This document shows positions 9,058-56,041 of a stretch of DNA of 64,000 nucleotides, one piece after another. The stretch spans positions 1,728,001-1,792,000 of the forward strand of contig CAWGLD010000001.1 of the NCBI GenBank assembly GCA_963823335.1, given 5' to 3'. Position 1 is the first letter of the stretch; each line of letters begins with the position of its first letter. Both the position numbers and the translations under genes were made by a program. Under the pieces are notes generated by a model. It made no database searches. It was not told the DNA's origin and was given only the letters and a program-made list of their open reading frames with translations. The stretch comes from an uncultured delta proteobacterium. GTDB lineage: Bacteria; Desulfobacterota; Desulfobacteria; Desulfobacterales; B30-G6.

Positions 9058-9222
9058 CTCCAACAAAACGGTAGATATCAGGCCCCTGAAATTTTACCGG
9101 TGTGCGATTATAATAACAACAGACCAAATATTGCATTCATAGGGTCTCCCGTGGTACCGTGGGAATGACCAAATGTTATCGGCAATTATAAGGGAGAGAT
9201 TGATAACTGGACTTATCTCCAT
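9058..9222 (-). repeat. TGGAG-bounded spacer, type A (165 bp)
   Basis: Minus strand ATGGAGATAAGTCCAGTTATCAA...TGATATCTACCGTTTTGTTGGAG; homologous to 33708-33872 and 35330-35496. Confidence 0.9.
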
Positions 9223-9291
9223 GTATCTTTAACCAGCTGTAAAGAAGGCTAAATAACCAACAGATAGTTCAAATATCAGGAGGGGGAACGA

Positions 9292-10089: not shown

Positions 10090-10141
10090 TAGTGTAGACT
10101 GCATATATTCAGATCATACGCTGCACTGATTACGGGAAAAC

Positions 10142-10170
10142 TGATACTTGGACTTATCTCCATCAATCAC
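10142..10170 (-). repeat. TGGAG spacer left-end motif only
   Basis: Minus strand GTGATTGATGGAGATAAGTCCAAGTATCA. Confidence 0.75.
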
Positions 10171-11217: not shown

Positions 11218-11300
11218 ATGGAGAACATTTCCACCTTTGCACAATTGCGGGTAACATCATTATCAGCTTTTTCAGCCGGACAAATTATGCTGATGTGGAG
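11218..11300 (+). repeat. TGGAG-bounded spacer, type C (83 bp)
   Basis: ATGGAGAACATT...TTTGC...GTGGAG; similar to 11796-11875. Confidence 0.65.
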
Positions 11301-11759: not shown

Positions 11760-11795
11760 CCTTCCTCCAATAAAAGAGCATGTTATTAAAGATGC

Positions 11796-11875
11796 ATGGA
11801 GAACATTACCCTTTTGCCAAGATTACAGATAGCATCAACTGGACTGTCAATTCAGATATATCTTACAAAGTGAAG
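11796..11875 (+). repeat. TGGAG-bounded spacer, type C (80 bp)
   Basis: ATGGAGAACATTACCCTTTTGC...CAGATATATCTTACAAAGTGAAG. Confidence 0.6.
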
Positions 11876-13264: not shown

Positions 13265-13309
13265 TGGTACGCCCGGCAGGATTCGAACCTGCGGCCTACG
13301 GATTCGAAG
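13265..13309 (-). repeat. 45-bp exact duplicate of the tRNA-Arg 3' half (att site)
   Basis: TGGTACGCCCGGCAGGATTCGAACCTGCGGCCTACGGATTCGAAG identical to 17596-17640. Confidence 0.93.
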
Positions 13310-17595: not shown

Positions 17596-17672
<77 letters not shown>

Positions 17673-30046: not shown

Positions 30047-30098
30047 TCGAACCGCTACAATGAGCGCATTCCCCGTGGCTTGTTGCGGGGTTCTTCAG
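30047..30098 (+). repeat. 52-bp short copy of palindromic element in the hom leader
   Basis: TCGAACCGCTACAATGAGCGCATTCCCCGTGGCTTGTTGCGGGGTTCTTCAG. Confidence 0.75.
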
Positions 30099-33166: not shown

Positions 33167-33243
<77 letters not shown>

Positions 33244-33666: not shown

Positions 33667-33707
33667 AATATGGTCCTTCAAAATATGCTTTTCCAAGATG
33701 TTGATAG

Positions 33708-33872
33708 ATGGAGAGAAGTCCAGTTATCAATTTTGATGTAAATTTTACCGATACCATACGGTTATGTCAATCGTGCACCGGAAAGCCCCATGAGTACAAT
33801 AAACGACCGACTGTCATTATATTCGCACATCGTTACTTTTTAGGCCACCTGATATCTACCGTTTTGTTGGAG
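33708..33872 (+). repeat. TGGAG-bounded spacer, type A (165 bp)
   Basis: ATGGAGAGAAGTCCAGTTATCAA...TGATATCTACCGTTTTGTTGGAG. Confidence 0.9.
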
Positions 33873-34037
33873 TCATCGGCAATGGCCAGTTGGAGACTTA
33901 TGCCAGTAATCTTTAAAAAATGATAGATAGCAAGACACCCATATATGGTATGATAGCCTTTTTAGAGGTTTCCCGTTTCGTTAATGTGTTGGAATCGGGA
34001 CTTCGCCCGGAGCAAAGTTCGGGTTACACCCAGCTTG

Positions 34038-35084
34038 TCATGCCGCCGGTCTTTTATCCGTAACTTTTGAGATGAAATCAACCTGCATTCTCACGACCTT
34101 ATCAAACCATTCACCCTCGTATATCTCGAAGTGGTCAATTGGTAGCGTATGGAATATGCCCAGGTTACCTGTTACCTCCGCAATTTTGACGTGAGAATTT
34201 GGTGCAACGATCTGGTCGTTCTCACATTGGAAAAAGACCATGGGACAGGTGACCCTTTTGGCAGCCTCAATGATATTTGGACCATGTGGCTCCACGATTG
34301 TGCGAGCAACGATTTCGTTGCGGAACAATTTTGAGCTTTTCACCAGTCGAGCATATCCTTCGTATGCCCCAGGCACATTGAGAATCGCTGTAGTTCCTGG
34401 AACGCCAATAGCTGGCAACATGTGGGGAGAAAGACCAAATCGAGAGCGCCCCTTATCGCGCTGAGCATGTATCAAAAGTTTGAGCATCCAAGCGATACCA
34501 ACCTGTTTAAGGACATGCTTCCCATCGACTCGATGATCCAGCGAAGAACATTGGCCGATCACACCGGCAATTCTGTGGTCCTCGGCTGCCAGCGCAATGC
34601 CGTAGTTACCCCCTGCCGATGTCCCCCAAACAACGATTTTGTCTGGGTCGATCTCTTTAAGTGAGCGCAGGTGAACTATCGCTCCACGGGCATCCTCAAT
34701 CTGCTTGCGAACAGAATAGAGTTGTCTTGGCTCCCCATCACTTTCACCGAAATGTCGATAGTCAAAGGAAAAGGCTGCAAACCCGGCCTCTACGAAGCGG
34801 AGTGCGTATTGCTCTATAATCATATCTTTCGTACCACAAAACCCCGTGTTGAGTAGGATACACGGGACTTTGACGGTGGTTTCCTCTGGAATATACAACC
34901 ACCCGCTAAGTGCAAGACCGTTAACCTCGAAAGTAACATTCCGTCGGCACGGCGGCGTGGAATACTTAGAAGTAATCTGCGGCATCGGCTGTCTCTTCAC
35001 CCGCAAGATGGGAAACATAATGATAACTATTAGATAAGTAGCGATTAACACAATTAAGGAACCAAGGATTTTTATCGCGATCAT
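34038..35084 (-). CDS. Membrane-anchored alpha/beta hydrolase
   Basis: N-terminal TM, FDYRHFGESDGEPR, WGTSAGG, DHF. Confidence 0.88.
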   Translation of the reverse strand: MIAIKILGSLIVLIATYLIVIIMFPILRVKRQPMPQITSKYSTPPCRRNVTFEVNGLALSGWLYIPEETTVKVPCILLNTGFCGTKDMIIEQYALRFVEAGFAAFSFDYRHFGESDGEPRQLYSVRKQIEDARGAIVHLRSLKEIDPDKIVVWGTSAGGNYGIALAAEDHRIAGVIGQCSSLDHRVDGKHVLKQVGIAWMLKLLIHAQRDKGRSRFGLSPHMLPAIGVPGTTAILNVPGAYEGYARLVKSSKLFRNEIVARTIVEPHGPNIIEAAKRVTCPMVFFQCENDQIVAPNSHVKIAEVTGNLGIFHTLPIDHFEIYEGEWFDKVVRMQVDFISKVTDKRPAA

Positions 35085-35329
35085 GCGGCAGATCCTTTCT
35101 CAACAACATAGTGGAGCAAGGTTGGTTAAAGAAAATGCTTCTGTTCACTGGTGTCCGCTCATAACTATTTTAATGAAAACAATCATACATGCATAAATGT
35201 ATAAGGAAAAATGTTGATGAAGATAATCACCCGTCATACAAAATTGCTGATGCCATATCTTGGGGTCAAAGAAAATAATGCATAACTCAACATTTCGCTA
35301 ATAAGCCTTCAAACCGGAAACTGCGATTG

Positions 35330-35496
35330 ATGGAGAGATGTCCAGTTATCAAGCTCAACCAAATTATTAGCGATACCATCTGGTTATCCCCACGGTATCA
35401 CGGAGGAGCCTATGAATACAAGATACAGTCTGTTGTGATAATTTTTTTGCACACCGGTAAAATTTAAGGCGCTTGATATCTACCGTTTTGTTGGAG
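35330..35496 (+). repeat. TGGAG-bounded spacer, type A (167 bp)
   Basis: ATGGAGAGATGTCCAGTTATCAA...TGATATCTACCGTTTTGTTGGAG. Confidence 0.9.
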
Positions 35497-35578
35497 CAAT
35501 CTGTAATGCACAATAAGAATGCAGGGCCATTTCAGAACTGATCGATTCCTACGGATCATCACACTCCTAAATAACAAC

Positions 35579-35635
35579 TTGACAACAAGCGTATGAAACC
35601 ATATATTAACTCTAACGTGGATATTGGTTATCCAC
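35579..35635 (+). promoter_or_regulatory. Sigma70 promoter plus palindromic operator (probably for the adjacent Rrf2 regulator)
   Basis: TTGACA-N17-TATATT then GTGGATA-N5-TATCCAC at 35617-35635. Confidence 0.65.
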
Positions 35636-35670
35636 ATAAGTGATATTGCATAAAATTTTGGAGGATCATT

Positions 35671-36042
35671 ATGTTTGACGAAACGTTTATGACGGTTGTT
35701 AGTAAAGAGGGTGTTGTTTCCATAGTATCATGTTCCGATAACGAAGCTCATGTAGTGAATACATGGAATTCTTACTTGGCTTTCCCTGGAGAGGACCGAA
35801 TGCTTATCCCAGTGTTTGGAATGAGAAAGACCCAGAAGAAAGTTGAGAAAAACCCCAACGTATTGCTTACTTTAGGCACTAAAGAGGTCGAAGGAAAAAT
35901 GGGGCCAGGCACCGGGTATCTTATCAAGGGAACAGCGAAATTCATGAAATTCGGCCCGGAATTTGATATGATGAAGCAAAATTTCTCTTGGGCTAATCGT
36001 GTTCTTGAAGTAACAGTTTCATCTGTAAAACAGACGATTTAG
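35671..36042 (+). CDS. FMN-binding split-barrel protein
   Basis: HVVNTWNSY, LTLGTKEVEG..GPGTGYLIKGTA. Confidence 0.85.
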   Translation: MFDETFMTVVSKEGVVSIVSCSDNEAHVVNTWNSYLAFPGEDRMLIPVFGMRKTQKKVEKNPNVLLTLGTKEVEGKMGPGTGYLIKGTAKFMKFGPEFDMMKQNFSWANRVLEVTVSSVKQTI

Positions 36043-36266
36043 GCTTACATTTCCCTTGTCTTTACGCAGAGCGACTCCTCCTGATCATTAATGCTTGAAA
36101 AGAGGATCTAAGCAGCGTGTATTCGTAGGTAGTCGCTCTAAGCAATAATTCATGTCCGGGAAGACAACCTTTACGTTTACATTTTGTAATTACTATCCTG
36201 TTACTGAAACTGATATAAGAAATGTAAGGTAATAAGAGTCATTCCCTTTTGGTATAGGAGGGTCCA

Positions 36267-36755
36267 ATGCAGTTCAGTGTTGGAGTTGAGTACGCATTTC
36301 ATTCGTTGTTTTATATGGTTGATCTTCCTGAAGATAAGACTGTTGGTATCAAGAAAATAGCGGAATTAAATGCAATCTCAGAAACTTACCTATCAAAATC
36401 TTTCGCTAAACTGAGAAAGTTCGGTATCGTTCGGTCAATACCCGGAGTTAAAGGTGGCTATGAGTTAGCTAAACCTGCAGAGGATATTTCTTTTTGGGAT
36501 ATCATTGAAGCTATCGAAGGTCCCTCTTACTTTTTTCAGTGCGCTGAAATACGAAAAAAGAATATTTTTGTGGATGACCCTTCTGTGTTTACATCTGAGT
36601 GTCCTTGCCTGATAAAAGTGGTGATACAGGAAGCGGAGGAGTTGTTTCGTAATAGGTTAAAAACCAGGTCTCTACGTTGGTTATATGATCAAGTACACAA
36701 TGATTTTTCAGAGGAGAAAAAAAAGGCCATAACTGAATGGATTGATTCAATCTGA
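36267..36755 (+). CDS. Rrf2 family transcriptional regulator
   Basis: SVGVEYA, YLSK, GVKGGYELA, FQCAEIR, CPCLI. Confidence 0.92.
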   Translation: MQFSVGVEYAFHSLFYMVDLPEDKTVGIKKIAELNAISETYLSKSFAKLRKFGIVRSIPGVKGGYELAKPAEDISFWDIIEAIEGPSYFFQCAEIRKKNIFVDDPSVFTSECPCLIKVVIQEAEELFRNRLKTRSLRWLYDQVHNDFSEEKKKAITEWIDSI

Positions 36756-36880
36756 TTTTATCCAGTAAGTGTTGAATATGAATACCTTGGGCAGTAGCCA
36801 ATTTAGTACCCACCAAGGATGCGGCTCAATTTAAGATATCATTGCTGATTCTGAAATTATCGGAGAATCCTCTGCACTGG

Positions 36881-36909
36881 TGATGAATGGAGAGAAATCA
36901 AGAATATCA
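36881..36909 (+). repeat. TGGAG spacer left-end motif
   Basis: TGATGAATGGAGAGAAATCAAGAATATCA. Confidence 0.7.
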
Positions 36910-36965
36910 GTCTACCAGCACCAGGGCCAACGCTATCGTCAACGTCAAAGTCAAAGTCACCACCA

Positions 36966-37084
36966 TTGAACCGAAAAAGCGAGCGCATTCCCCGTAGCTT
37001 GCTGCGGGGTTAGCGAGCGAATCTAGATTAGACAGAATTCCTTACGGTCGAAGATTCCTCGTAGCTTGCTGCGAGGTTCTTCAA
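36966..37084 (+). mobile_element. Longest copy (119 bp) of a palindrome-bearing non-autonomous element (IS200/IS605-end-like)
   Basis: TTGAA...TTCAA ends; two ATTCC(C/T)CGTAGCTTGCTGCG(G/A)GG hairpins; about 9 copies in window. Confidence 0.7.
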
Positions 37085-37168
37085 TAGAGGGACATTTTTA
37101 CTAGTCCAGACCACCTTACCGCTGTTATTAATCTGCGGATCTTGATCATCATAGTCGTTGTCGGTTAA

Positions 37169-38797
37169 TTATCCTAAAATGGCTTTAAGATCCTCTTCAG
37201 CTGATGAGATCGGTTTAATTTCAAAATTATCTACAAGAGTTTGCAGAACATTCGGGGTAATAAAGGCTGGTAGAGAAGGCCCTAAGCGGATATCTTTAAT
37301 GCCAAGATGAAGCAGTGCCAGTAAAACGCAAACAGCTTTTTGCTCATACCAGGAAATAATCATAGAAAGCGGCAATTCATTGACCCCAACACCAAATGCG
37401 TTTGAAAGCGCAAGGGCAATTTGAACAGCTGAATAGGCATCATTGCACTGCCCGGCATCTAAAAGACGAGGTATGCCGCCGATATCGCCTAGATCCTGGT
37501 CAAAGAAGCGGTATTTACCGCAGGCAAGGGTCAAGACAATGCAATTCTTGGGCACTTTTTCAACAAACTCAGTGTAGTAATTTCGGCCGGGTTTGGCACC
37601 ATCACAACCAGCTACCAGAAAGAAATGTTTTATATCACCTGATTTAACGGCTTCGATGATCTTGTCGGCAACGCCCAGAACGGCATTGCGGGCAAAACCG
37701 ACAGTTACCTCCTGTGTGACATGATCTTCCCCAAAACCTGGAAGCTCTAAAGCCCTATCAATAACCGGCTGAAAATTAAGGTCCGGGATATGAGGTATGC
37801 CCGGCCAGCCAACCATGCCGCTAGTAAATAGGTTTTCTTTATAGTCATTTTTAGGCCGCTGGATACAATTGGTGGTCATCAAAATGGCACCCGGAAAATC
37901 AGAAAATTCTTTCGTCTGTTTTTGCCAGGCCGTACCGAATTGACCGTAGAAATGTGGATATGCCTTTAACTTGGGGTAGCCATGCGTCGAGAGCATCTCG
38001 CCGTGGGAGTAGATGTTAATATCTTTTCCTTCTGTTTGTTTTAAAAGTGCCTCAAGATCGTTCATATCGTGTCCTGAGACAAGAATGGCTTTTCCCTTCT
38101 TATACCCCAGCGGAACCTTTGTCGGTACAGGATGACCAAATTTTTCTGTATTGCCTGCATCAAGAAGCTCCATGGCTTTATAGGCGGCCTCCCCACATCT
38201 GAGTGCCATCTGGACCCAGTCTTCAACGCTAAGGTCATCGCCCTGAATAGCGGCCAGCCCCTCATGCACATATGCGTAAACACTTTCATCTTCCTGCCCT
38301 AAAATCAGCGCATGGTCCGTGTAAGCACTAACGCCCTTAATTCCATAGAGCACTGTATGTTTTAAGGATAGGATATCCGGATTTTCACCTGGATACGATT
38401 TTATTCCGACTTGTTCCCCTTGTTTCACCAACTCTTCCAAGCCGGTTTTTGCTTGGAAAACGGCAGGTCCGTCAGGCCATCCATTATTACCGCCGGCAGC
38501 CTCAACTTGTGTTTTTAATTTTTCACGCAACCTAATGGATTGCTGGATCAAATCCACAAATCGATCAGGGTCAAAATCAACATTTGTCAGGGTGGAGAAG
38601 GCTGCCTTGACCGTGAAAACGTTTACATCACTGTCTGAGACACCAACTTTTCGCCCTTCCACGGCAACTTGTGACAGTCCCATTAATGAATAAAGAAGCA
38701 GATCCTGCAAAGCTGCGATTTCCGGTAATTTTCCACAAACGCCCTGTACGGTGCAACCTGTCCCCTTAGCGGTTTGTTCACACTGGTAACAAAACAT
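37169..38797 (-). CDS. hcp: Hybrid cluster protein (hydroxylamine/NO reductase)
   Basis: MFCYQCEQT..GC...GVCGK, SGHD, TTNC, GCDG, GQCND, SWYEQKA. Confidence 0.97.
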   Translation of the reverse strand: MFCYQCEQTAKGTGCTVQGVCGKLPEIAALQDLLLYSLMGLSQVAVEGRKVGVSDSDVNVFTVKAAFSTLTNVDFDPDRFVDLIQQSIRLREKLKTQVEAAGGNNGWPDGPAVFQAKTGLEELVKQGEQVGIKSYPGENPDILSLKHTVLYGIKGVSAYTDHALILGQEDESVYAYVHEGLAAIQGDDLSVEDWVQMALRCGEAAYKAMELLDAGNTEKFGHPVPTKVPLGYKKGKAILVSGHDMNDLEALLKQTEGKDINIYSHGEMLSTHGYPKLKAYPHFYGQFGTAWQKQTKEFSDFPGAILMTTNCIQRPKNDYKENLFTSGMVGWPGIPHIPDLNFQPVIDRALELPGFGEDHVTQEVTVGFARNAVLGVADKIIEAVKSGDIKHFFLVAGCDGAKPGRNYYTEFVEKVPKNCIVLTLACGKYRFFDQDLGDIGGIPRLLDAGQCNDAYSAVQIALALSNAFGVGVNELPLSMIISWYEQKAVCVLLALLHLGIKDIRLGPSLPAFITPNVLQTLVDNFEIKPISSAEEDLKAILG

Positions 38798-39112
38798 AGC
38801 GGCTCTCCTTGTTAGCTTTTTGAATATTTAAGAATTGGAACTCATTAGATTTATGATTTCTTGCATTATGGTTAAGTATTCTCGAACTCAAGAATAGTGA
38901 TGCTATTGTGAAGATCAAAAGAGAAATGATCAGACGTGTCGAGATGTGTTTGAAAATCAGAGCAGGTACAAGCCTGATTCATGATTTAAGATACAATATC
39001 AGGAAATTATTGAAACCACAAGATATGGTTATTTTAAGATCGATGCAGAAGATGTGATATGCTCGGAAATGTCGGCTGAAAACCAAATATCAACCCGGTG
39101 ATGATACATGGA

Positions 39113-39420
39113 GAGACTGTCGAAAAAGCTTTTATGACAAACCAGGCTATCTCTCATATTCAGATCATACCACTTTTAGCGACTTGAGCCTATCAATCTC
39201 CCAATTCAGTCTATGCGAAACCATAATTGGCCACTTTTTCTATGTTGTGGACCATACAATAAAGCAGCCACTGGATATTTACTTTCACCTTACCTCTTAA
39301 GTTAAACTTGTCCATTCGTTTTTGAGTCCGAATGTTGGCAAACACAGGTTCAACGATTGCGATCCGTCGGGGATAGATCTTACGCCCTTTTTCTGAGTCG
39401 ATCTTTTTGATGTAGTCCAA
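39113..39420 (-). mobile_element. IS1182-family transposase 3' remnant with terminal repeat
   Basis: KIDSEKGRKIY.RR..IVEPVFANI....F.LRGK.KV..QW.LYCMVHNIEK; end GAGACTGTCGAAAAA abuts ATGGAG at 39108. Confidence 0.75.
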
Positions 39421-39572
39421 ATTAGGAGATCTTTTCAATTTGAGGTTAATTGCTAAGAGTTGATAACACGAAAACACAACTTTTCCAGAATAGGACTTGT
39501 ATTACGCGTAATGATGGTGCCACAGGTTTGTCTAACCCGCTGATAAGACATCGCAGGTATTAAAGCGGTATA

Positions 39573-41117
39573 TTAGTAATTTTCATAAGATTTTTTTAAT
39601 ATTTCAATAGGATGCTGAACCGGGTAGTTACTCATTTGGTTGAATTGTAGTCGGCAACTTAAGCAATCAGTGATCAGATAGTTTGGATCCAATTGTCTAA
39701 CTTTTGCCATCAATCGGCTACCCATTTGTATGGAAGTTTTATGAAAATCATGTTTGAAACCCATGATCCCTGCAATGCCGCAACAGTAAAAAGTGCTCTG
39801 GAAAGTCTCCACCGAGATATCAGGAATCTGGGCTAATAGGTCCAGATAGGGCATGCCCACACCCTGTTCCCTTAAGTGGCAAGGCGGATAATAGACCATC
39901 TGCCCAAGGACTGGTCCCAACTTGGTGTCCAATTTACCTCTACGATATAAATCTAATAGGTATTCTCCAAGGTCATAGGTGTTTTCTGCGACTTTGATTC
40001 GTTTCAACGGATCTATAACCGAGAAATATCCATTGTCTTTTAGGATTTCTCCATAGATGGATTTATCGAGTACGCGATGCTCTGCCATTTTACAAGAGCC
40101 ATTTAATGCATATTCAAAGTTCACGGTTTCCTGCGTTTTATTGTTCTTGCCGAGCGCTGCTTTACTTCCAGCGGATACTTTGGATTTATCAATACTGCTC
40201 CCTTTGAATGGTACTTTTTCTGGGATTTTCATATGCCGATCGTCGCCACCGGCAAGATCCTGGTATTCATTTGAGTAGTATGCACACTCCCGGAGTGCGT
40301 ATTTCAACATATAGCCGCAAGTGGGACAAGAGCAGACTACATCATACCCCCCTTCCACCACCTCTGCCAGTTGCGTTATCGTTCGCTCTGCAAACGTCAA
40401 TGTCAACTTTCTGTCACCTTCGAGCATACTCGGCATTCCGCAGCAATTCTGTTCCGGATAATAGACACTAATATCGTTTCTCTCGAGAATTTCGATGGCA
40501 GCTTTGGGGACGTCCGGGAATAAATACCGGGCAGTACAACCTGCAAAGTAGGCTACTTTGCGCCCCTTTTTCGATTGGGGCTTTTCATCCAACTTACGAC
40601 GTTTAGCCCATGACGGAAAATTCTCTTTCGGGAAAATCGGAAGCTTGCGTTTAGGGTTTATTCCTGCAATCCTTTTAATAAAACGACTCGTATGTTTGTT
40701 TTGAAGGAAAAAATTGGATATCTGGGGAATGGCACCACACAACTTCCCCACTCGCTCCACATCTTCAAGAGTTCGGATGTATAAATCGAGTCCATCCCTA
40801 TCTATAAAAAGAGTTTTAGCGGTGATAATATCCTCACGGATATTAGGACAAGGGCATAATGCGCAGTAGTTGCATAAATCTGCAACATGCCGCAATTCCT
40901 GGGAAGTAATCTGTTCACCAGTTTCTTTTTCCCTGTCCCACAGTTTGTATATCTCTGGAAATAATAAGCAACTGGTGTCCATAATGTGCCGGCAACAATC
41001 ACAATCCGTGCAGGCGTCAACGACCTTCCTCATCATGTGTTCCGCATTATCCATCTCACTTGTAGATAAGAACTTGCTATTTGGCATGCTGTGTATCCTG
41101 AATCTCGATTTGTACAC
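39573..41117 (-). CDS. Fe-S oxidoreductase with CCG domains (GlpC/Hdr-related)
   Basis: CTDCDCC, CNYCALC, YFAGC, CCGMP, YYPPCH, CCGIAG, DCLSC. Confidence 0.85.
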   Translation of the reverse strand: MYKSRFRIHSMPNSKFLSTSEMDNAEHMMRKVVDACTDCDCCRHIMDTSCLLFPEIYKLWDREKETGEQITSQELRHVADLCNYCALCPCPNIREDIITAKTLFIDRDGLDLYIRTLEDVERVGKLCGAIPQISNFFLQNKHTSRFIKRIAGINPKRKLPIFPKENFPSWAKRRKLDEKPQSKKGRKVAYFAGCTARYLFPDVPKAAIEILERNDISVYYPEQNCCGMPSMLEGDRKLTLTFAERTITQLAEVVEGGYDVVCSCPTCGYMLKYALRECAYYSNEYQDLAGGDDRHMKIPEKVPFKGSSIDKSKVSAGSKAALGKNNKTQETVNFEYALNGSCKMAEHRVLDKSIYGEILKDNGYFSVIDPLKRIKVAENTYDLGEYLLDLYRRGKLDTKLGPVLGQMVYYPPCHLREQGVGMPYLDLLAQIPDISVETFQSTFYCCGIAGIMGFKHDFHKTSIQMGSRLMAKVRQLDPNYLITDCLSCRLQFNQMSNYPVQHPIEILKKSYENY

Positions 41118-41219
41118 CTAACTACATACTTGATAAGAACCATTTAACCTTTCACGATTTCATGGCTCCTCAAAACATGTGCTCTATAAATGAAATCACA
41201 ACTGAAAGCCATTCAATTC

Positions 41220-41290
41220 CCTGTACAGATATAGCATTTCTGACAAAAATGCAAAAAAGGGCAAATCCATCTAAATGGTATTGCCCTTTA
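41220..41290 (+). repeat. Internal part of type B spacer with terminator-like hairpin
   Basis: TACAGATATAGCATTTCTGACAAAAATGCAAAAAAGGGCAAA...TTGCCCTT. Confidence 0.65.
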
Positions 41291-41466
41291 CGATTCAAAT
41301 CACAAGAAATTATATGCTCAAAAAATATTAATATTTCTTGGATTATGTCAACTGAGTTATAAGGTAGTTACATGAATTGACGAAATGGGTCAAGAACTCA
41401 TCGATTTTATTGGTGGTGACTTTTGATACCCTGTTTGAAAGCCAAGTATCACTGTAATACCGATAT

Positions 41467-41705
41467 ATGGAGAGATCCTAAGGTTATCACCCCGCCAAAA
41501 AACTTGCGATAACATCACATTTTGGGCTGAAAATAGCCTGGAACGCTATTACTGATACCATTTTTCTTACAATTATGCAAAAAAGGGAAAACCGCTGAAA
41601 CGGTTCTCCCTAATGATAACATAAAAATACAAGTCGCTTAAAAACGGCTATGGTGGTGATGTGCTATAAAACCTGAAAATGTCGTTAAATACCGATGAGT
41701 TGGAG
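41467..41705 (+). repeat. TGGAG-bounded spacer, type B (239 bp)
   Basis: ATGGAGAGATCCTAAGGTTATCAC...TTCTTACAA.TATGCAAAAAAGGG hairpin...AAAACCTG...GTTGGAG. Confidence 0.8.
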
Positions 41706-41712
41706 TAATCTG

Positions 41713-43332
41713 CTATTCAAATGTCAGGCTCTCAACTACTGACGCAATTTTTTCTGGGTTTCGTCCGGTGTGGATAACAAGATAAACACATTTATTATCT
41801 CTGTATGAAGATACGACCAGCGATGTCAATTTAATATAATCGTAATATGTCCATTTGATATCTGTCCTATATGCGCGTGAGCCACAATTCAAAGTTATTT
41901 CCTTATTGGCTATAACCTCAGCATCAGAACCTATGATTTGAAGATATTCCATATAAAATTTTGGTCCGAAATCCTCTAATTTGAGCTTATCCGGAATGGC
42001 AATTACAGATGCTTCAAAATTTGCCCTGTTTGGTGTTTTCATTCTCATTATTTGTCCCGGAGAAGTGACACTTTGCTTTTCGCTCCCAATAGGATACTCA
42101 AACATAAATTTTGGAGATTTCGCTCGCCTGAATATACCGTCCTTTGCTATACCCTCTTCTCTGGATAACCAGACAAAACCATCTGAAAAAGAAGTGGACA
42201 CGCTTTTTACCAATTGATCAAGTCTTTCGGCTTCTCTCGTATTTGCTGGCAACGACTCAGAAGATACAACTGCAGGAAATATATATTTCTTCGTTAATTC
42301 AAGCGGAAGAGAAGTTTTCCCGACGGGTAAGTCAGCGGTAAATACCACAACCATATTCATCTCCGCTGCCACCATAATATACTGACCATTAGAGCCGATA
42401 GCAGAATAATTGCCGTCATCATCCACCCACCATTGATACCCGTATTGCACAGCTGGTTTAGCTTCAATATGTCCACGCGTTGATTTTTCTACCCAAGAAC
42501 TCGATACAAGTTGCTTCTTCTCCCACCTTCCCTTATTGAGGTAAAGCCATCCAATTTTGGCCATGTCATGGGGTTTTAACCACATCCGACCATATCCAAC
42601 ATCAATACCCTGCGGGCTTTTTTCCCAATCAATTTCTGAAATACCAAGGGGAGTGAATAGATTCTTTTCAGCAAATTCTCTGGTTTTCATTTTCGTTGTA
42701 GTGTTGATGATTACCGATAAAAGATGTGATAAGCCGTTGCAGTACACGTATTTACTACCTGGAGGACGGACCATCGGTAGATTAAGGACATGTTGCCCCC
42801 AATCACCGCTGCGCCTCATTTCGAATAATCCTTTCCAATTGTAATGATGAGAGTCCCTGCAATCTAAACCAGAAGCCATAATCAACAAGTGCTCAAGTGT
42901 AATTGACCTTTTATTGCCACCTAAGCTATCAATTATATTATGCGGTAATAATTCAACAATAGGTTGATCGACACTTTTTATATACCCTCTATCAATCGCT
43001 ATGCCTATCAGGATCGACATAATACTCTTTGTACAGGAACGAATGATGTGTCTCTGGCCTTTTGAAAATGGGTAAAAGTAGGCATCAAGAACCATGTAAC
43101 CATTGCGGATTATTGATATGCTATCTATGTTGTAACCTTTCATTTTTATCTCTTCAATCATATTGGCAAGCACTTGAGATTGCATGCCCTGTTCCTCAGG
43201 AGTGGAGGTCTGCCATCCATTTGCGGGGTAAGTGTTAACGGCTGCGGGCGAGAGTGAATAGGAAAATGTAGTAATCAAAAAAGCAAGAAGGGTGTAAAAT
43301 AAAATGTACCATTTATCTTGAATCAAATTCAT
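41713..43332 (-). CDS. Exported serine hydrolase (class C beta-lactamase-like family) with extra C-terminal domain
   Basis: SCTK, YCN, YGYQWW; signal-like N-terminus. Confidence 0.85.
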   Translation of the reverse strand: MNLIQDKWYILFYTLLAFLITTFSYSLSPAAVNTYPANGWQTSTPEEQGMQSQVLANMIEEIKMKGYNIDSISIIRNGYMVLDAYFYPFSKGQRHIIRSCTKSIMSILIGIAIDRGYIKSVDQPIVELLPHNIIDSLGGNKRSITLEHLLIMASGLDCRDSHHYNWKGLFEMRRSGDWGQHVLNLPMVRPPGSKYVYCNGLSHLLSVIINTTTKMKTREFAEKNLFTPLGISEIDWEKSPQGIDVGYGRMWLKPHDMAKIGWLYLNKGRWEKKQLVSSSWVEKSTRGHIEAKPAVQYGYQWWVDDDGNYSAIGSNGQYIMVAAEMNMVVVFTADLPVGKTSLPLELTKKYIFPAVVSSESLPANTREAERLDQLVKSVSTSFSDGFVWLSREEGIAKDGIFRRAKSPKFMFEYPIGSEKQSVTSPGQIMRMKTPNRANFEASVIAIPDKLKLEDFGPKFYMEYLQIIGSDAEVIANKEITLNCGSRAYRTDIKWTYYDYIKLTSLVVSSYRDNKCVYLVIHTGRNPEKIASVVESLTFE

Positions 43333-43370
43333 GGTTCCCCCTTGGGCAAATATTAGACGATTGCAGATAC

Positions 43371-43564
43371 ATGGATTCTGCAAATATTACTTCGCCCAGA
43401 TAACTGTGTCTTTCGAGCATATCTGCAATCTGAGTCCCCCACAATTCTATTACAGATATCCCATTTCTTACAAAAATACAAAAAAGGGGAAATTCAGCTG
43501 AACCGATCTTCCCCTTGATATGATAAAAAACCTGTAAACATCAAGAAACTGTCATGTGTTGGAG
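43371..43564 (+). repeat. TGGAG-bounded spacer, type B (194 bp)
   Basis: ATGGATTCTGCAAATATTAC...TACAGATATCCCATTTCTTACAAAAATACAAAAAAGGGG...AAAACCTG...GTTGGAG. Confidence 0.8.
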
Positions 43565-43665
43565 AGTTGTGGAGACTCCGCGAGCTACACCCTACGGGCT
43601 CGCTCGCCTCCACAACAGCTATCTATAGGAAAGGTACCAGACATCAACGGTCAAAGTCGTGTACT

Positions 43666-44502
43666 TTATTTCTCTCCAATGATAGCAATTTCTGCCGAAT
43701 CCGGAGTCAGAGGTTTACCGGCAACATCCGAGTATAACGCTTTAACTTTTAGGCCGTTTTCTTCAAATTCGTTTCTCAGCGAATCTTTGTTGAAGTACTG
43801 TAACCAATTATAAACCGTACGCTTCCGGTTTTTTTCTATCACGGTATATTTATCAAGAATCACCAGTTCGTTTTCATATTTAAACGTGTTTACAAAGCAG
43901 TAATAATCGTCAGGCGACCAGAAACCGTTTAGCTGATTTAGTTGATAAGCTGCCAATTCTTCTCTCTGCTTGAAAGCGTTTATAGAATATACATCAAGTA
44001 ACACGGAACCTTCCGGCTTCAGTAGCGACCGAAATTTTGAGAGTATCGTTTTCCTTTGTTCGGGACTCAGGGCGCAGAAATCACACATTATCATTATGAT
44101 AAGATCGAAACGGTCTGTTGTATCAAAATCAAGATAGTTCATCAGAAGGTAACTGATTTCAAGTTCTTTTCGAGTAGCCTCCTGCTTAGCATATCTGATA
44201 GAATTTTCAGAGAAATCTATACCAGTCACAGTTGCACCACGTTCTGCCAGTTTTTCTGTGTAGAGACCCGGTCCGCAGCCGAAATCTGCAATTTTAGTGC
44301 TTTCACCCACTCCGAATCGAGAGGCAATCCATTCTGCGGAACATTCAATAAAATTTCTGTTCCGGGATGACATATCAACTGATTCGTTCAGGTGATATCC
44401 GAGCATCTGTTTTGATGTGTGTTCATCTGTCCAAAGTTCATCAGCTGTATAGAACTGAAAAGGTTCGGGACGTGAATTTATTTCTTTGAGTTCCTGAAAC
44501 AT
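43666..44502 (-). CDS. Class I SAM-dependent methyltransferase
   Basis: ADFGCGPGLY, GIDFS, LKPEG. Confidence 0.92.
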   Translation of the reverse strand: MFQELKEINSRPEPFQFYTADELWTDEHTSKQMLGYHLNESVDMSSRNRNFIECSAEWIASRFGVGESTKIADFGCGPGLYTEKLAERGATVTGIDFSENSIRYAKQEATRKELEISYLLMNYLDFDTTDRFDLIIMIMCDFCALSPEQRKTILSKFRSLLKPEGSVLLDVYSINAFKQREELAAYQLNQLNGFWSPDDYYCFVNTFKYENELVILDKYTVIEKNRKRTVYNWLQYFNKDSLRNEFEENGLKVKALYSDVAGKPLTPDSAEIAIIGEK

Positions 44503-44636
44503 AATTAATCCTATATTGATTTCTAACACATAGCGATTTAATCCTTGGCTCGTCTTTTTGAGTGATGCTCTGTGGTGTGAACAGATGCCTTATTAAAGTC
44601 GATGCATTATTCATTTTTTAGGTTGACCTTTGATTG

Positions 44637-44785
44637 ATGGAGAGATCCTGCAGATATCACCTTTGCCAGATATCTGTGTTTTCCAAGGGTATCTGCAATA
44701 GCGACCTGCCTCATTACCCTTACAGATAGCCCATTTCTTACAAAAATGCAAAAAGGGCAAATCCTGCAATAGAATTTAGTCTTTC
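44637..44785 (+). repeat. Type B spacer, right end missing
   Basis: ATGGAGAGATCCTGCAGATATCAC...TACAGATAGCCCATTTCTTACAAAAATGCAAAAAGGGC. Confidence 0.8.
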
Positions 44786-44856
44786 CGGTAAGATCGCCGG
44801 TGTTCGGCTCCGGTTCATTAGGCTATTCAGCCCCGCCGCAGAATGAAAAATTTACA

Positions 44857-44898
44857 TAAAAAAAGCCCTTCAATCTTATTTGAAAAGATTGAAGGGCT
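44857..44898 (-). terminator. Intrinsic terminator downstream of B12-box remnant
   Basis: AGCCCTTCAATCTT...AAGATTGAAGGGCT followed by U-run on minus strand. Confidence 0.75.
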
Positions 44899-44974
44899 GC
44901 ACCCAGCTTTCTTGGCCCTTTCTATTTTTAACGATTGCTCTCTGTATCACCGCAGAGAGATGGCTATTTACCAA

Positions 44975-45023
44975 GGCAGGTCTTCTGACTCCCGATTCAA
45001 TCTAATTTCCGCGCCTTTCCATC
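44975..45023 (-). ncRNA. 3' half of a cobalamin riboswitch
   Basis: Minus strand GATGGAAAGGCGCGG...GGGAGTCAGAAGACCTGCC (B12 box); no 5' half recognisable. Confidence 0.65.
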
Positions 45024-45045
45024 TGGTTGTCTGTCAAGTTTTTAC

Positions 45046-45191
45046 TAGAAGCCATCTCAAAAAAAGGGTTTTGGCTCAAGTTCAAGGCGGGCCCGAACTT
45101 CAACCCGCAGGCATACTGAAGTATTCCGAGGAGTTGAAGCAAGGGACCAACACAGAAATTGGGTCAAAAAACTTTTTTGAGATAGCTTCTA
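45046..45191. mobile_element. 146-bp MITE
   Basis: TIRs TAGAAGCCATCTCAAAAAA / TTTTTTGAGATAGCTTCTA; partial second copy 56190-56247. Confidence 0.8.
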
Positions 45192-45230
45192 ATCAAAAGG
45201 ATCAACCATCTGGACCCCCTTGCCTAACCT

Positions 45231-45797
45231 CTAAAACCGCAACAGTGGAACTATTTCAGGCGTTTCATCCTTATCGATAGGAAAGAACTTAAGGGATTTG
45301 CCGTGAAAAACTTCCATCTGCTCCTCATTCACCTTTTGGGATAGCGGCAAATAGTAAAAGCCCAGTTTCATGCTGTAGTTTTTTTCGTTTGTTTTCAGTT
45401 TTATCTTGACCTCATTATGATTCCACTTGTAAACGGTTTCGCCGGTTTTTGCAGAAAAACTCTTATCAGGGTTGCCGTATTTCGATTTCAAGTAATTACG
45501 AAACTCCCCGAAAACCTCTTCACTTTCCAGCGTGATATACACCGCAAAAAACTGGTCTTCGTAGAAACCATATACTACATCGGGGACCGGGATCTCATTG
45601 ATTGTGTGAACGATATTGGGCTGGGTGTAATAGACCACATTTTCTTTCTCGTACAACCGAGCCAACCTTTCCTGATGAGCCGCGGGTGAGGCCCATTGGA
45701 TTCCCATGAACCCGTCTTTCAGATCCTCGGCGCCTGCAAAGCCGACGGCAAGGCAGATAGCGACCAGGACGCAACCTCCCGCAATTAGCGTTTTCAT
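45231..45797 (-). CDS. Exported hypothetical protein
   Basis: Signal peptide MKTLIAGG...AGA; DGFMGIQW, KYGNP; RBS GAGGA. Confidence 0.75.
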   Translation of the reverse strand: MKTLIAGGCVLVAICLAVGFAGAEDLKDGFMGIQWASPAAHQERLARLYEKENVVYYTQPNIVHTINEIPVPDVVYGFYEDQFFAVYITLESEEVFGEFRNYLKSKYGNPDKSFSAKTGETVYKWNHNEVKIKLKTNEKNYSMKLGFYYLPLSQKVNEEQMEVFHGKSLKFFPIDKDETPEIVPLLRF

Positions 45798-45857
45798 GTC
45801 AGTATTCCTCATCATTAAAGGTTGATGATTTCGCAAAAATCCATCGTCAAAATCATA

Positions 45858-45909
45858 TTGAACCGAAATAGCGAGAGCTTTCCCCCCTGCTTGCGGCGGG
45901 TAGTTTCAA
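45858..45909 (+). repeat. 52-bp copy of TTGAACCG..TTCAA element
   Basis: TTGAACCGAAATAGCGAGAGCTTTCCCCCCTGCTTGCGGCGGGTAGTTTCAA. Confidence 0.65.
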
Positions 45910-45918
45910 CTGATGGTT

Positions 45919-46104
45919 TTAAAACTTTTGAGGATCACAAAGATTTTCAGAGCTGTTTGCTACACGTCCACAACCACCACAAACATAGTGTCCGTTCGAT
46001 ACCAGTTTTTTCCACTCTTCAAAATTATCTTTTAACAGTCCATCACCGTGCAGAGCACATAGATGTTTATCATGTCCTTCATGTGGCATTTCTTTTTTGC
46101 TCAT
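45919..46104 (-). CDS. Small Cys/His-rich putative metal-binding protein
   Basis: HDKHLC...YVCGGCGRVA....NLCDP; RBS GGAGG. Confidence 0.75.
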   Translation of the reverse strand: MSKKEMPHEGHDKHLCALHGDGLLKDNFEEWKKLVSNGHYVCGGCGRVANSSENLCDPQKF

Positions 46105-46239
46105 AATTACCTCCAATGCATTCTAATAAACTACTATTTAGGCAGTTTTAAATTCAGTGGTTTTTTAAGGATCTTGGTAACCTTCAAAAAATAGGTTGCT
46201 AAAGGCCACTTGTCAAATATTTTAATTAATGAGTTTGTC

Positions 46240-46325
46240 ATGATAACACAAAAACACAACATGGCTAAATTTGTCTATGGTGGTGATATTATAAAAAACC
46301 TGTAGATATCGTGGAATTGTGATAT
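46240..46325 (+). repeat. Right half of type B spacer
   Basis: TGATAACACAAAAACACAAC...CTATGGTGGTGAT...AAAACCTGTAGATATCG aligns to 41614-41690. Confidence 0.7.
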
Positions 46326-46344
46326 GTATGATATCGGCAACTGG

Positions 46345-55989: not shown

Positions 55990-56041
55990 TTGAACCGAAA
56001 AAGCGAGCGTATTCCCCGTAGCTTGCTGCGAGGTTCTTCAA
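55990..56041 (+). repeat. 52-bp copy of TTGAACCG..TTCAA element
   Basis: Near-identical to both ends of 36966-37084 with the middle removed. Confidence 0.85.

Follow-up and report, generated by a model that had tools for sequence, protein, structure and literature searches.

A chromosomal array of repeat-bounded gene cassettes and a linked Xer-like recombinase in an uncultured delta proteobacterium

What separates, and perhaps moves, the unrelated accessory genes that follow one another beside a tRNA-Met gene in this genome? The window analysed here is a stretch of 64,000 nt (CAWGLD010000001.1, positions 1,728,001-1,792,000; assembly GCA_963823335.1). An initial annotation had noted related non-coding elements between these genes, bounded by a left-end and a right-end motif containing TGGAG, and had read them as recombination sites of an unrecognised gene-capture system rather than attC. 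The observation is confirmed and extends far beyond the window, and our data support the interpretation. We put at about 0.6 the probability that this region belongs to a chromosomal system of gene cassettes, integron-like in its working but built from other parts.

Repeats and cassette arrays

The window motifs are the two ends of one repeat of 165-250 nt, which occurs as types A and B and reads in gene sense 5'-CTCCAAC ... TTGATAACTGGACTTnTCTCCATnTATC-3'. In this sense the left-end motif is CTCCATnnATC, whilst the right-end motif is CTCCAAC (GTTGGAG on the other strand) and forms the 5' boundary of the repeat, on the stop-codon side. Type A copies measure 165-178 nt (33703-33872, 35325-35496, 9058-9227) and type B copies 195-245 nt (41462-41705, 43366-43564; also 44632 to about 44800). 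As annotated, the left-end motif is present on the minus strand at 33708, 35330, 36887, 39108, 41467 and 44637 and on the plus strand at 9222 and 10163 (9217-9227 and 10158-10168), and the copy described as degenerate at 43371 was found at 43366-43376. The site at 11796 is motif-like (11791-11801, minus strand) but is a weaker variant, and that at 11218 lacks the nnATC spacing. GTTGGAG ends at 33872, 35496, 41705 and 43564, and starts at 9058 on the other strand. The pattern GATNATGGAGA matches neither of the named motif sites, the gap there being two bases. The features of the window are as follows.

33167-33243, plus: tRNA-Met gene, bounding the hypervariable island; homology with relatives ends shortly beyond it
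33703-33872, minus: type A repeat closing the alpha/beta-hydrolase cassette (nhmmer 180.9 bits); core CTCCATCTATC at 33703-33713, 5' boundary CTCCAAC at 33866-33872
34038-35084, minus: cassette gene, alpha/beta hydrolase (Pfam Hydrolase_4 and Abhydrolase_1), flanked by two type A repeats
35325-35496, minus: type A repeat, core at 35325-35335 (nhmmer 186.8 bits)
35671-36755, plus: PNPOx-like FMN protein gene and Rrf2 regulator gene (Pfam PNPOx_N, Rrf2)
36882-36892, minus: core-only site CTCCATTCATC downstream of hcp, without the long repeat
37169-38797, minus: cassette gene hcp, hybrid-cluster protein (Pfam Prismane, E 3e-170)
39103-39128, minus: core CTCCATGTATC at 39103-39113 and an abutting solo terminal inverted repeat of a DDE insertion sequence at 39113-39128
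39211-39477: transposase fragment, DDE_Tnp_1_6 match
39573-41117, minus: cassette gene, Fe-S oxidoreductase with CCG domains (Pfam CCG)
41462-41705, minus: type B repeat closing the serine-hydrolase cassette, core at 41462-41472 (nhmmer 173 bits); terminator-like hairpin and T-run on the gene strand at 41584-41611; 5' boundary CTCCAAC at 41699-41705, 8 nt past the stop codon
41713-43383, minus: cassette gene, serine hydrolase of beta-lactamase/esterase fold (Pfam Beta-lactamase)
43366-43564, minus: type B repeat closing the methyltransferase cassette, degenerate core ATCCATGTATC at 43366-43376 (nhmmer 192 bits)
43666-44529, minus: cassette gene, SAM-dependent methyltransferase (Pfam Methyltransf_25)
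44632-44800, minus: type B repeat, core at 44632-44642, 5' end ill-defined (nhmmer 147.6 bits)
46240-46327, minus: 5' fragment of a type B repeat without core (repeat families D4, D5)
9058-9227, plus: type A repeat of the second island, core at 9217-9227, next gene from 9292 (nhmmer 189.9 bits)
10123-10168, plus: 3'-module fragment, core at 10158-10168 (repeat family D10)
11791-11801, minus: weak core-like site CTCCATGCATC between the GGDEF and STAS-like genes; no long repeat detected here by nhmmer

Pfam matches bear out the unrelated gene modules named in the initial annotation, and its single exception to a common reading direction, the FMN/Rrf2 pair, is indeed the sole array module in opposite orientation. 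Of the hcp cassette and its surroundings, the gene alone is common to two relatives (G004 and G006).

A profile built from 48 copies gave 85 type A matches across the genome (E<1e-5), 57 of them near-full copies, lying mostly in co-oriented arrays. These form 20 clusters, and the two largest hold 20 and 13 repeats, each all on one strand; on the ORF map, each repeat is accompanied by about one ORF. A median of 78 nt separates the stop codon of a gene from the repeat behind it, and a leader of median length ~211 nt connects that repeat to the next ORF start. The ORF upstream of a near-full copy is co-oriented with it in 53/57 cases and that downstream in 49/57. The cargo of one cassette bears no relation to that of the next.

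CTCCATnnATC occurs 115 times in the genome, compared with ~33 occurrences expected on a uniform-composition estimate, and 64 of these sites abut an nhmmer repeat match on the expected strand. Across the 64 aligned sites, information content falls off directly 3' of ...CTCCATnTATC. The terminal core of the repeat, TTGATAACTGGA-CTTnTC-TCCATnTATC, can be read as an inverted repeat, imperfect and of 10-6-10 layout, such as Xer-like tyrosine recombinases use.

One alternative is an ordinary integron, or a cluster of very long attC sites whose integrase was lost to incomplete assembly. An array in which every gene has such a site at its 3' end is integron-like. Integron integrases are frequent in this order and the assembly is 93.9% complete. 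However, attC sites are 57-141 nt long with inverted RYYYAAC/GTTRRRY ends, whereas the repeats are longer, their ends are direct rather than inverted and GTTRRRY is absent. RNAalifold on the 48 copies returned -0.15 kcal/mol for one strand and -4.0 kcal/mol for the other and did not pair the termini, and single-copy folding z-scores averaged about -1.2 to -1.3. The best TIGR02249 score in this genome, 88.5 bits, falls short of the cut-off of 265. Moreover, the repeat was found in 15 of 41 relatives, and IntI above cut-off is present in only 2 of these 15 (absent from 13) compared with 15 of the 26 others, a distribution largely complementary to that of IntI. The features of attC and IntI are thus absent, the initial annotation having already set the sites apart from attC, and we regard an integron origin as highly improbable.

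Breakpoints at the repeat core

Comparison of duplicated and cross-genome cassettes places their boundaries at the core (TCTCCAT, the 3' end of the repeat) in 7/8 cases upstream and 3/7 downstream. In a 1.27-kb cassette duplicated on contig C7, identity begins at TCTCCATGTATC of the upstream repeat and runs to the same motif of the cassette's own repeat. The whole cassette of the serine hydrolase gene at 41713-43383 in the window is 92% identical to one in another genus (G013:C307), where its neighbours differ and homology extends from TCCAT to TCTCCAT. One of the eight upstream boundaries lies ~170 nt beyond the core. The remaining downstream boundaries (4/7) are internal to the repeat or coincide with its 5' end. 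The repeats are thus mosaics, and exchange also proceeds through homologous recombination or at a second point.

These data refine the earlier proposal of TGGAG as the crossover. The left-end motif (ATGGAGA/TCTCCAT) is the usual breakpoint, but the right-end motif GTTGGAG, the 5' boundary of the repeat, is an exact breakpoint in one comparison only. Likewise, the elements are supported as recombination sites but not as spacers: the moving unit consists of leader, gene and repeat, and the repeats are therefore the 3' ends of cassettes.

Might the repeats instead be passive intergenic modules, such as terminators, promoters or REP/BIME-like elements, shuffled by homologous recombination among ~90 similar copies without a dedicated recombinase? 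Type B repeats carry terminator-like hairpins at the same place with stems that differ between copies, leader families are common to several cassettes, and mosaic repeats that break after the best-conserved internal block are the outcome expected of homologous exchange. However, most upstream boundaries fall within a core of 7-12 nt at the extreme end rather than across 170 nt of homology, and the repeats that lie upstream of moved cassettes frequently share just ~60-70% of their sequence up to the core. Moreover, in metagenome contigs the core alone, without the long repeat, parts co-oriented genes near the recombinase gene described below, whose tight linkage to the core passive modules leave unaccounted for. 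We consider this explanation unlikely.

A linked tyrosine recombinase

As previously noted, the 64-kb window holds no tyrosine or serine recombinase match. Elsewhere, a small XerA-like tyrosine recombinase of 268 aa (YR268) is encoded in or beside the core-bearing part of a repeat. In this genome (G000), G001 and G015 the gene lies antisense within a split type A repeat, flanked by its 5' module (model positions 30-95) and its 3' module (141-215), and takes the place of exactly the central 45 nt. The units of G000 and G001 are 93% identical until 5 nt from the core, after which different cassettes follow. We sampled 80 metagenome loci, of which 46 had at least 66% identity and enough flank; in 29 of these 46, the recombinase gene has the core-bearing 3' module upstream of it, at a distance of 70-99 nt. 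By identity, the counts are 10/18 (at least 79%), 19/28 (66-78%) and 0/19 (below 66%). The core motif is on the strand opposite to the gene in 59 cases and on the same strand in 5 among loci of at least 66% identity, as against 0:3 in the others, and neither repeats nor cores surround the more distant homologues (45-63% identity). YR268 homologues occur in 11/15 repeat-bearing genomes and 5/26 others; the four repeat-bearing genomes in which none was found are all fragmented or incomplete.

The catalytic residues of YR268 (R, K, HxxR, H, Y) are conserved, and its score on the IntI model is 38-47 bits, where the cut-off is 265. In G000, G001 and six metagenome contigs its reading frame is broken at a conserved A9 run, such that expression would depend on slippage or on a start within the gene. 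Given its linkage to the core, we infer that YR268 catalyses the exchange.

Alternatively, the repeats could derive from a small integrative element (5' module, YR268, 3' module) as miniature, non-autonomous versions of it. Each repeat would insert itself behind a gene, using as core the CTCCA common to both ends, and the cassette pattern would be a by-product of repeat build-up in permissive islands. Both ends do carry (T)CTCCA as a direct repeat, the gene substitutes for precisely the centre of the repeat, isolated half-repeats of ~65 nt are frequent and the one comparison that breaks at the 5' boundary fits. A single-copy gene flanked by a repeat that it may mobilise is also the layout described for REPIN-RAYT systems (PMC3337134). 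Against this, moved or duplicated units contain the gene and end on both sides at the 3' core, which independent insertion does not predict, and we found no empty-site pair (a gene with and without the repeat, CTCCA kept). The 53/57 co-orientation and the complementarity to integrons also suit a cassette platform better. Of the alternatives this is the most credible, yet still improbable.

Lastly, an IS91-family rolling-circle element with its own tyrosine recombinase (YR296 and a Y2 transposase) might mobilise cassettes by one-ended transposition or by YR296 acting on cores. Three 2.57-kb copies in G004, 99.9% identical, each start right after TCTCCATnn and finish in ...CTCTAATCAT, followed by nnATC, and a related copy in another genome abuts a cassette exactly at the position of the 5' repeat boundary in G000. 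YR296 homologues (at least 67% identity) are confined to repeat-bearing genomes. However, the unit is present in just 5 of these 15 and was not found by tblastn in G000, despite its 85 repeat matches, nor was the Y2 transposase; it behaves more like a site-specific parasite of the core. We think it distinctly unlikely to be the agent. A DDE insertion sequence and a group II intron occupy cores in the same way.

Proposed mechanism and comparison with known systems

We favour a gene-cassette system in which each cassette comprises a leader, usually one gene and a 165-250-bp repeat with the core at its 3' end. Two directly repeated cores would recombine to excise the cassette as a circle, whose core could then recombine with any resident core, leading to insertion; repeated rounds would build co-oriented arrays in hypervariable islands, such as that beside tRNA-Met. 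Among public contigs, only two joints between the two type A repeats were found, both short-sided and of a kind that repeats can yield by chance. The most likely catalyst is YR268, encoded antisense in a "master" repeat copy, with ~70-100 bp between gene and core. The rest of the repeat, ~150 bp preceding the core, is probably accessory or architectural DNA and in type B may also include an intrinsic terminator, by which each cassette would be insulated. A role for this accessory part is hard to explain, since an arm-binding domain is lacking in Xer-like recombinases. In this bacterium of sulfate-reducer type, accessory genes would be stored as movable one-gene cassettes, with the last few bases of the repeat as the swap point. 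We found no published description of this system.

In Xer sites of the cer/psi type, ~160-180 bp of accessory sequence flank the core on one side. These sites resemble our repeat in layout only, with a short core at one end of a conserved flank of ~150-180 bp. They serve to resolve multimers of plasmids, for which they require accessory proteins of the host; to our knowledge they have no role in gene capture. IS91/ISCR rolling-circle elements are known to pick up neighbouring genes, and an IS91-family unit sits at cores in relatives, but cassettes here have defined ends on both sides. The dif modules of Acinetobacter have inversely oriented sites and no long accessory repeat, whereas here directly repeated sites make up long arrays in the chromosome, with a dedicated recombinase linked to them. 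Accounts of these modules describe pdif sites and XerC/XerD (PMC6449649, PMC13141974): short double-stranded Xer-type sites of two arms and a 6-bp spacer bound modules that shuffle among contexts, as here, but those modules are plasmid-borne and use the host XerC/XerD. Their sites are also reported as targets of insertion sequences (PMC10132070). REPIN-RAYT systems share a single-copy enzyme gene flanked by a repeat with many gene-less intergenic copies, but RAYTs are HUH Y1 transposases acting on palindromic REP hairpins scattered genome-wide (PMC3337134, PMC3116915). Here there is a tyrosine recombinase, a non-palindromic repeat and ordered gene-carrying arrays.

Integrons provide a further comparison. 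In both systems, cassettes that mostly hold one gene and carry unrelated cargo form co-oriented arrays in hypervariable chromosomal islands. Each gene has a recombination site at its 3' end, with the crossover at the extreme 3' end of that site; the tyrosine-recombinase gene is directed away from the adjacent site, and insertion sequences and a group II intron target the sites. In contrast to attC, the site here spans 165-250 bp, is unstructured and conserved in sequence, and has direct repeats at its ends instead of an RYYYAAC/GTTRRRY pair. Its recombinase is XerA-like, far under the IntI cut-off, and is encoded within a repeat copy. Moreover, leaders are long and type B repeats contain terminators, and a common Pc-type promoter is therefore unlikely. 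Finally, the system occurs largely where IntI does not.

Cassette-closing repeats in the window and in the genome

The two motifs that the initial annotation had described as bounding spacers between unrelated genes are the ends of long repeats, a point on which direct reading, repeat finding and alignment agree. The motif as written there runs opposite to the direction of the genes; in gene sense, each repeat ends 3′ in a TCTCCAT-type motif, the core. The repeats come in two forms, type A and type B, which have both ends in common and differ in the interior, that of type B holding a hairpin and a T-run on the gene strand. The core was scanned with the pattern CTCCATnnATC; GATNATGGAGA, which has another gap length, gives no match at the named sites. 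Pfam bore out the gene content that had been reported between the repeats, and profile searches found no tyrosine or serine recombinase match in the window, in line with the earlier statement. The hypervariable island listed below is low in G+C, and its flanks are kept in relatives while its content is not.

Repeats, core sites and associated features in the window (window positions)
9058-9227, + strand, type A repeat
33167-33243 (tRNA-Met) to ~50.6 kb, hypervariable island
33703-33872, gene sense on the - strand, type A repeat (165-178 nt)
35325-35496, gene sense on the - strand, type A repeat (165-178 nt)
36882-36892, core-only site
39103-39113, core-only site
39113-39128, solo end of a truncated DDE insertion sequence, abutting the core
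39211-39477, C-terminal transposase fragment of the same truncated copy
41462-41705, type B repeat (195-245 nt)
43366-43564, type B repeat (195-245 nt)
44632 to ~44800, type B repeat (195-245 nt)
46240-46327, 5′ fragment of a type B repeat

Other repeated sequences were seen in the window. The 3′ 45 nt of a tRNA-Arg are exactly duplicated 4.3 kb apart (13265-13309 and 17596-17640), bracketing a radical-SAM gene and a 694-aa ORF with no integrase between them, a layout that resembles the duplicated attachment site left by an integrated element. A repeat of ~150 nt at 45044-45194, found at many sites in this genome and in related genomes with 92-99% identity, is probably a miniature transposable element. 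A family of short hairpin repeats (...CCCCGTAGCTTGCTGCGGGG...) lies at 30047-30092, 36965-37086, 45858-45903 and 55990-56035; it reaches 98% identity in related genomes, has a REP-like character and is separate from the cassette-closing repeats.

The initial annotation had suggested a profile scan of the genome. A profile first made with the three window copies and later remade with 48 was run over the 4.37-Mb genome under study (G000) and returned 85 type A matches, 57 of them near full length; a separate profile gave 11 type B matches. These fall into 20 clusters, the largest of which hold 20 repeats (contig C7, 199783-235833) and 13 repeats (contig C1, 85955-117302), each on a single strand, and neighbouring repeats are separated by about one ORF. 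The gene-sense consensus reads ...CTCCAACAAAA ... TTACCGGTGTGCGAAAATAATCACAAC ... GATGACCAGATGGTATCGGTAAT ... TTGATAACTGGACTTnTCTCCATnTATC. A co-oriented ORF lies upstream of 53 and downstream of 49 of the 57 near-full copies, with median distances of 78 nt from stop codon to repeat and 211 nt from repeat to next start. The cargo is unrelated: ten proteins of the C7 array include URO-D, a DnaJ domain, Ni-SOD, YceI/rhodanese, an acyltransferase and MFS, and two of the ten have no family assignment.

Exchange points at the core

The same annotation had proposed that breakpoints between strains be compared with the position of the motif. Within the C7 array a 1.27-kb unit occurs twice at 95.7% identity. 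Each copy is preceded by a repeat, and these two repeats are just ~60-70% alike; identity begins at TCTCCATGTATC, spans the leader, the gene and the entire downstream repeat, and ends after the TCTCCATGTATC of that repeat. Moreover, the serine-hydrolase cassette of the window is 92% identical to a contig of a genome of another genus (G013), where its neighbours are different; here homology runs from TCCAT of the upstream core to TCTCCAT of the cassette's own type B repeat. Further boundaries came from cassettes common to G000 and other metagenome-assembled genomes. Upstream boundaries lie at the core in 7 of 8 cases, the sole exception being ~170 nt past it; one of the seven is a repeat that bears a recombinase gene, whose copies in G000 and its relative G001 diverge 5 nt from the core. 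Of seven downstream boundaries, three lie at the core, three lie inside the repeat and one falls exactly at its 5′ boundary. Two of the three internal boundaries could be placed, one immediately after the conserved block ...AATAATCACAA and the other ~40 nt short of the core. On these counts the core is the main exchange point, and the repeats themselves are mosaics.

Across 64 aligned sites, conservation drops abruptly after CTCCATnTATC. We infer that the core consists of GATAACTGGA, CTTnTC and TCCATnTATC, a putative imperfect 10-6-10 inverted repeat whose arms agree at 8 of 10 positions. The fragmented contigs available from public sequencing runs showed no excision product; two joints between the type A repeats of the window, from 33731 to 35449 and from 33734 to 35361, have sides of just 21-24 nt, may come from other repeat copies and weigh neither way on excision. 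Some candidates were rejected: the pair at C1 111298 and 1513822 shares a protein domain and is not a duplicated cassette, the pair at C7 231150 and C4 537268 is a DDE insertion sequence, and the match at C1 96189 is a group II intron with its flanking repeat.

A candidate recombinase and other elements at the core

Eleven tyrosine-recombinase matches were found in G000, six of them in or beside arrays, and no serine recombinase was found in this genome. Looking beside the repeats for a recombinase, as had been advised, leads to YR268, a XerA-like protein whose gene is nested in a type A repeat between a 5′ module (model positions 30-95) and a core-bearing 3′ module (141-215). A second copy, on contig C9, is truncated. 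The nested arrangement is also present in G001 and in G015, a genome of another family (79-82% protein identity). The other array-adjacent tyrosine recombinases of G000 are mutually unrelated; they are fragmentary, except for a phage-type integrase that lies 5 kb outside an array.

Recombinase gene and other elements at the core (contig or locus, position)
C1:163935-164738, antisense within a type A repeat, gene of YR268 (Xer-like, 268 aa)
C7:231150-232953, DDE insertion sequence
C4:535465-537268, DDE insertion sequence
L066, L067 and L068 (related genome G004), IS91-family unit
L069 (G001), IS91-family unit
L065 (related genome G005), IS91-family unit
C1 ~96372-97003, group II intron
L028 168-945, group II intron
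L020 and L042, group II intron

YR268 belongs to the tyrosine recombinase superfamily (PF00589, E 1e-17 to 3e-19); R132, K155, H214, R217, H241 and Y250 show little or no variation across ten sequences, and HxxR is present. Its closest solved structure is Pyrococcus XerA (4a8e, E 6e-18). Among the family models it is closest to archaeal XerA, yet it stays below the equivalog cut-offs of the chromosome-dimer resolvases, which act on a single dif site: 105-110 bits against 220 for XerA, and 41-52 against ~330 for XerC and XerD. On the IntI model, whose members carry an extra domain, this protein of only 268 aa reaches 38-47 bits (cut-off 265). Two separate Xer-like genes lie on contigs C3 and C5 of G000, and the wider YR268 family comprises 4340 clusters at E<=1e-20. 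The YR268 gene opens with a 23-codon frame ending just after an A9 run, and the main frame continues in +1. This interruption is present in 8 of 8 contigs inspected (C1 of G000 and L070, L097, L099, L100, L105, L107 and L112); homologues at ~62-64% identity have a single uninterrupted frame. Judged from the frames, the A9 run looks like a site of programmed slippage or frameshifting.

At C1:162441-162540 (positions 2441-2540 of locus L096), Rfam also detects an mttB-type pyrrolysine insertion element with a score of 73 bits; the cassette in which it lies is the one next downstream of the repeat with the recombinase gene. Therefore, a Pyl-containing methyltransferase may travel as a cassette.

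Linkage between YR268 and the core was followed in 80 metagenome loci with YR268 homologues, counts being limited to loci with enough flank. At >=79% identity, 10 of 18 loci carry the 3′ module on the opposite strand, 70-99 nt upstream of the recombinase gene; at 66-78% the figure is 19 of 28, and below 66% it is 0 of 19. In the same three classes, the 5′ module follows the recombinase stop codon in 16 of 20, 5 of 27 and 0 of 19 loci. The recombinase-adjacent core is mostly TCTCAATnTATC. On both sides of the recombinase, co-oriented cores part single ORFs in metagenome contigs, even where no long repeat can be recognised. Cores on the strand opposite the recombinase gene outnumber those on its own strand 59:5 in loci at >=66% identity; below 66% the ratio is 0:3, with ~1.4-2.2 expected per strand. 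Around more distant YR268 homologues, which share 45-63% identity and come from six other genomes, neither repeats nor cores occur within ~10 kb; the linkage is thus confined to the clade at >=66% identity.

Three further kinds of element are found at the core. The DDE insertion sequence, which matches DDE_Tnp_1_6 and DUF772 and has terminal inverted repeats of 16 bp, lies inside the cassette core. The IS91-family unit, of 2.57 kb, encodes YR296, a tyrosine recombinase of 296 aa, together with a Y2 rolling-circle transposase; its three copies in G004 are 99.9% identical and each stands right after TCTCCATnn. That this unit is the catalyst of cassette exchange is a minor alternative: it carries a tyrosine recombinase and stands at the core, and it was found in 5 of the 15 repeat-bearing genomes and not in G000. 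The group II intron lies directly 3′ of the core, separated from it by a few bases that vary among genomes, and in L028 it matches RF02012 and RF00029; such a position recalls the attC-targeting introns of integrons. We read all three elements as parasites of the site.

Comparison with integrons and other known systems

As in integrons, the cassettes are co-oriented, a site lies 3′ of each ORF and crossover falls at the end of the site. The repeat is not attC, as the initial annotation had held. RNAalifold on 48 copies gives -0.15 (sense) and -4.0 kcal/mol (antisense) and no consensus structure, with local helices of only 3-5 bp; single-copy folding z-scores have means of -1.2 and -1.3, and the hairpin pairing of R′′ with R′ and L′′ with L′ that marks attC is not predicted. 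An attC site has inverted ends, RYYYAAC ... GTTRRRY, with crossover in GTT. Here the 5′ end, CTCCAAC, resembles RYYYAAC and the 3′ end, TCTCCATnTATC, is a direct repeat of it; the ends are direct repeats of (T)CTCCA, as first described. IntI above the curated cut-off is absent from G000, the best TIGR02249 match scoring 88.5 bits against a cut-off of 265. Thus the system works like an integron and lacks every integron-specific feature for which it was tested.

Other identities for the repeat were also considered. An antisense frame (MEISPVIKF...AHR*) is free of frameshifts and looks protein-like because indels are rare, but 25 of 48 copies contain internal stops and the repeat is therefore not a gene. 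Rfam over the window matched tRNAs alone. Miniature transposable elements or insertion-sequence ends were rejected, the repeat having no terminal inverted repeats and its copies being tied to the 3′ ends of genes; genuine insertion sequences, which do have such inverted repeats, also occur and are distinct from it. Modules bounded by dif carry inversely oriented 28-bp XerC-XerD sites, whereas the cores here are directly repeated, on a single strand within arrays and 59:5 on one strand around YR268. A REPIN-RAYT system requires an HUH Y1 transposase and palindromic REP doublets; here, in contrast, the associated gene encodes a tyrosine recombinase and the repeat is not palindromic.

Among the 41 related genomes compared, G000 counted, the repeat occurs in 15; it is carried by 7 of the 9 genomes of the genus, by 12 of the 14 of the family and by 2 genomes outside the family. 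A YR268 homologue is present in 11 repeat-bearing genomes out of 15, against 5 of the other 26. Integron integrases above cut-off are common in the order (17 of 41 genomes) and nearly absent from repeat carriers (2 of 15, against 15 of the other 26). All these counts serve as description and not as a statistical test, since the genomes are related to one another.

To our knowledge, integrons are so far the only bacterial system of their kind that is well understood, one in which single genes are accumulated and rearranged through site-specific recombination. The folded single-stranded attC site is their defining trick and is regarded as essential to the logic of the platform. No prior description of such repeat arrays was found by full-text literature searches or in passages from a classification paper (PMC8138268).

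Taken together, the arrays seen in the initial annotation are confirmed, and its interpretation of them as an unrecognised gene-capture system is supported and made more precise. We give even odds (about 0.5) to a joint reading in which they form a second, independently assembled integron-type platform for gene capture. A dedicated XerA-like recombinase would be encoded inside its own recombination element, with expression throttled by the conserved A9 run, and promoter-bearing cassettes would be shuffled through a double-stranded dif-like core, TCTC[C/A]ATnTATC, instead of a folded attC. Such a platform would be widespread in marine-sediment Desulfobacterales, would largely replace classical integrons in the family and, like attC, would have parasites of its own at the core (the IS91-type unit, the DDE insertion sequence and the group II intron).

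If this reading is true, gene-cassette platforms arose more than once, here around a Xer-like enzyme whose site is double-stranded and unstructured, and the recombinase and its site would make a compact new pair. Moreover, it would reveal cassette pools missed by surveys based on attC or IntI: this single genome gives ~90 repeat matches when types A and B are counted together, and related arrays occur on many contigs from sediment metagenomes. Lastly, the apparent complementary distribution with integrons within one order would make replacement of, or competition between, the two platforms directly testable.
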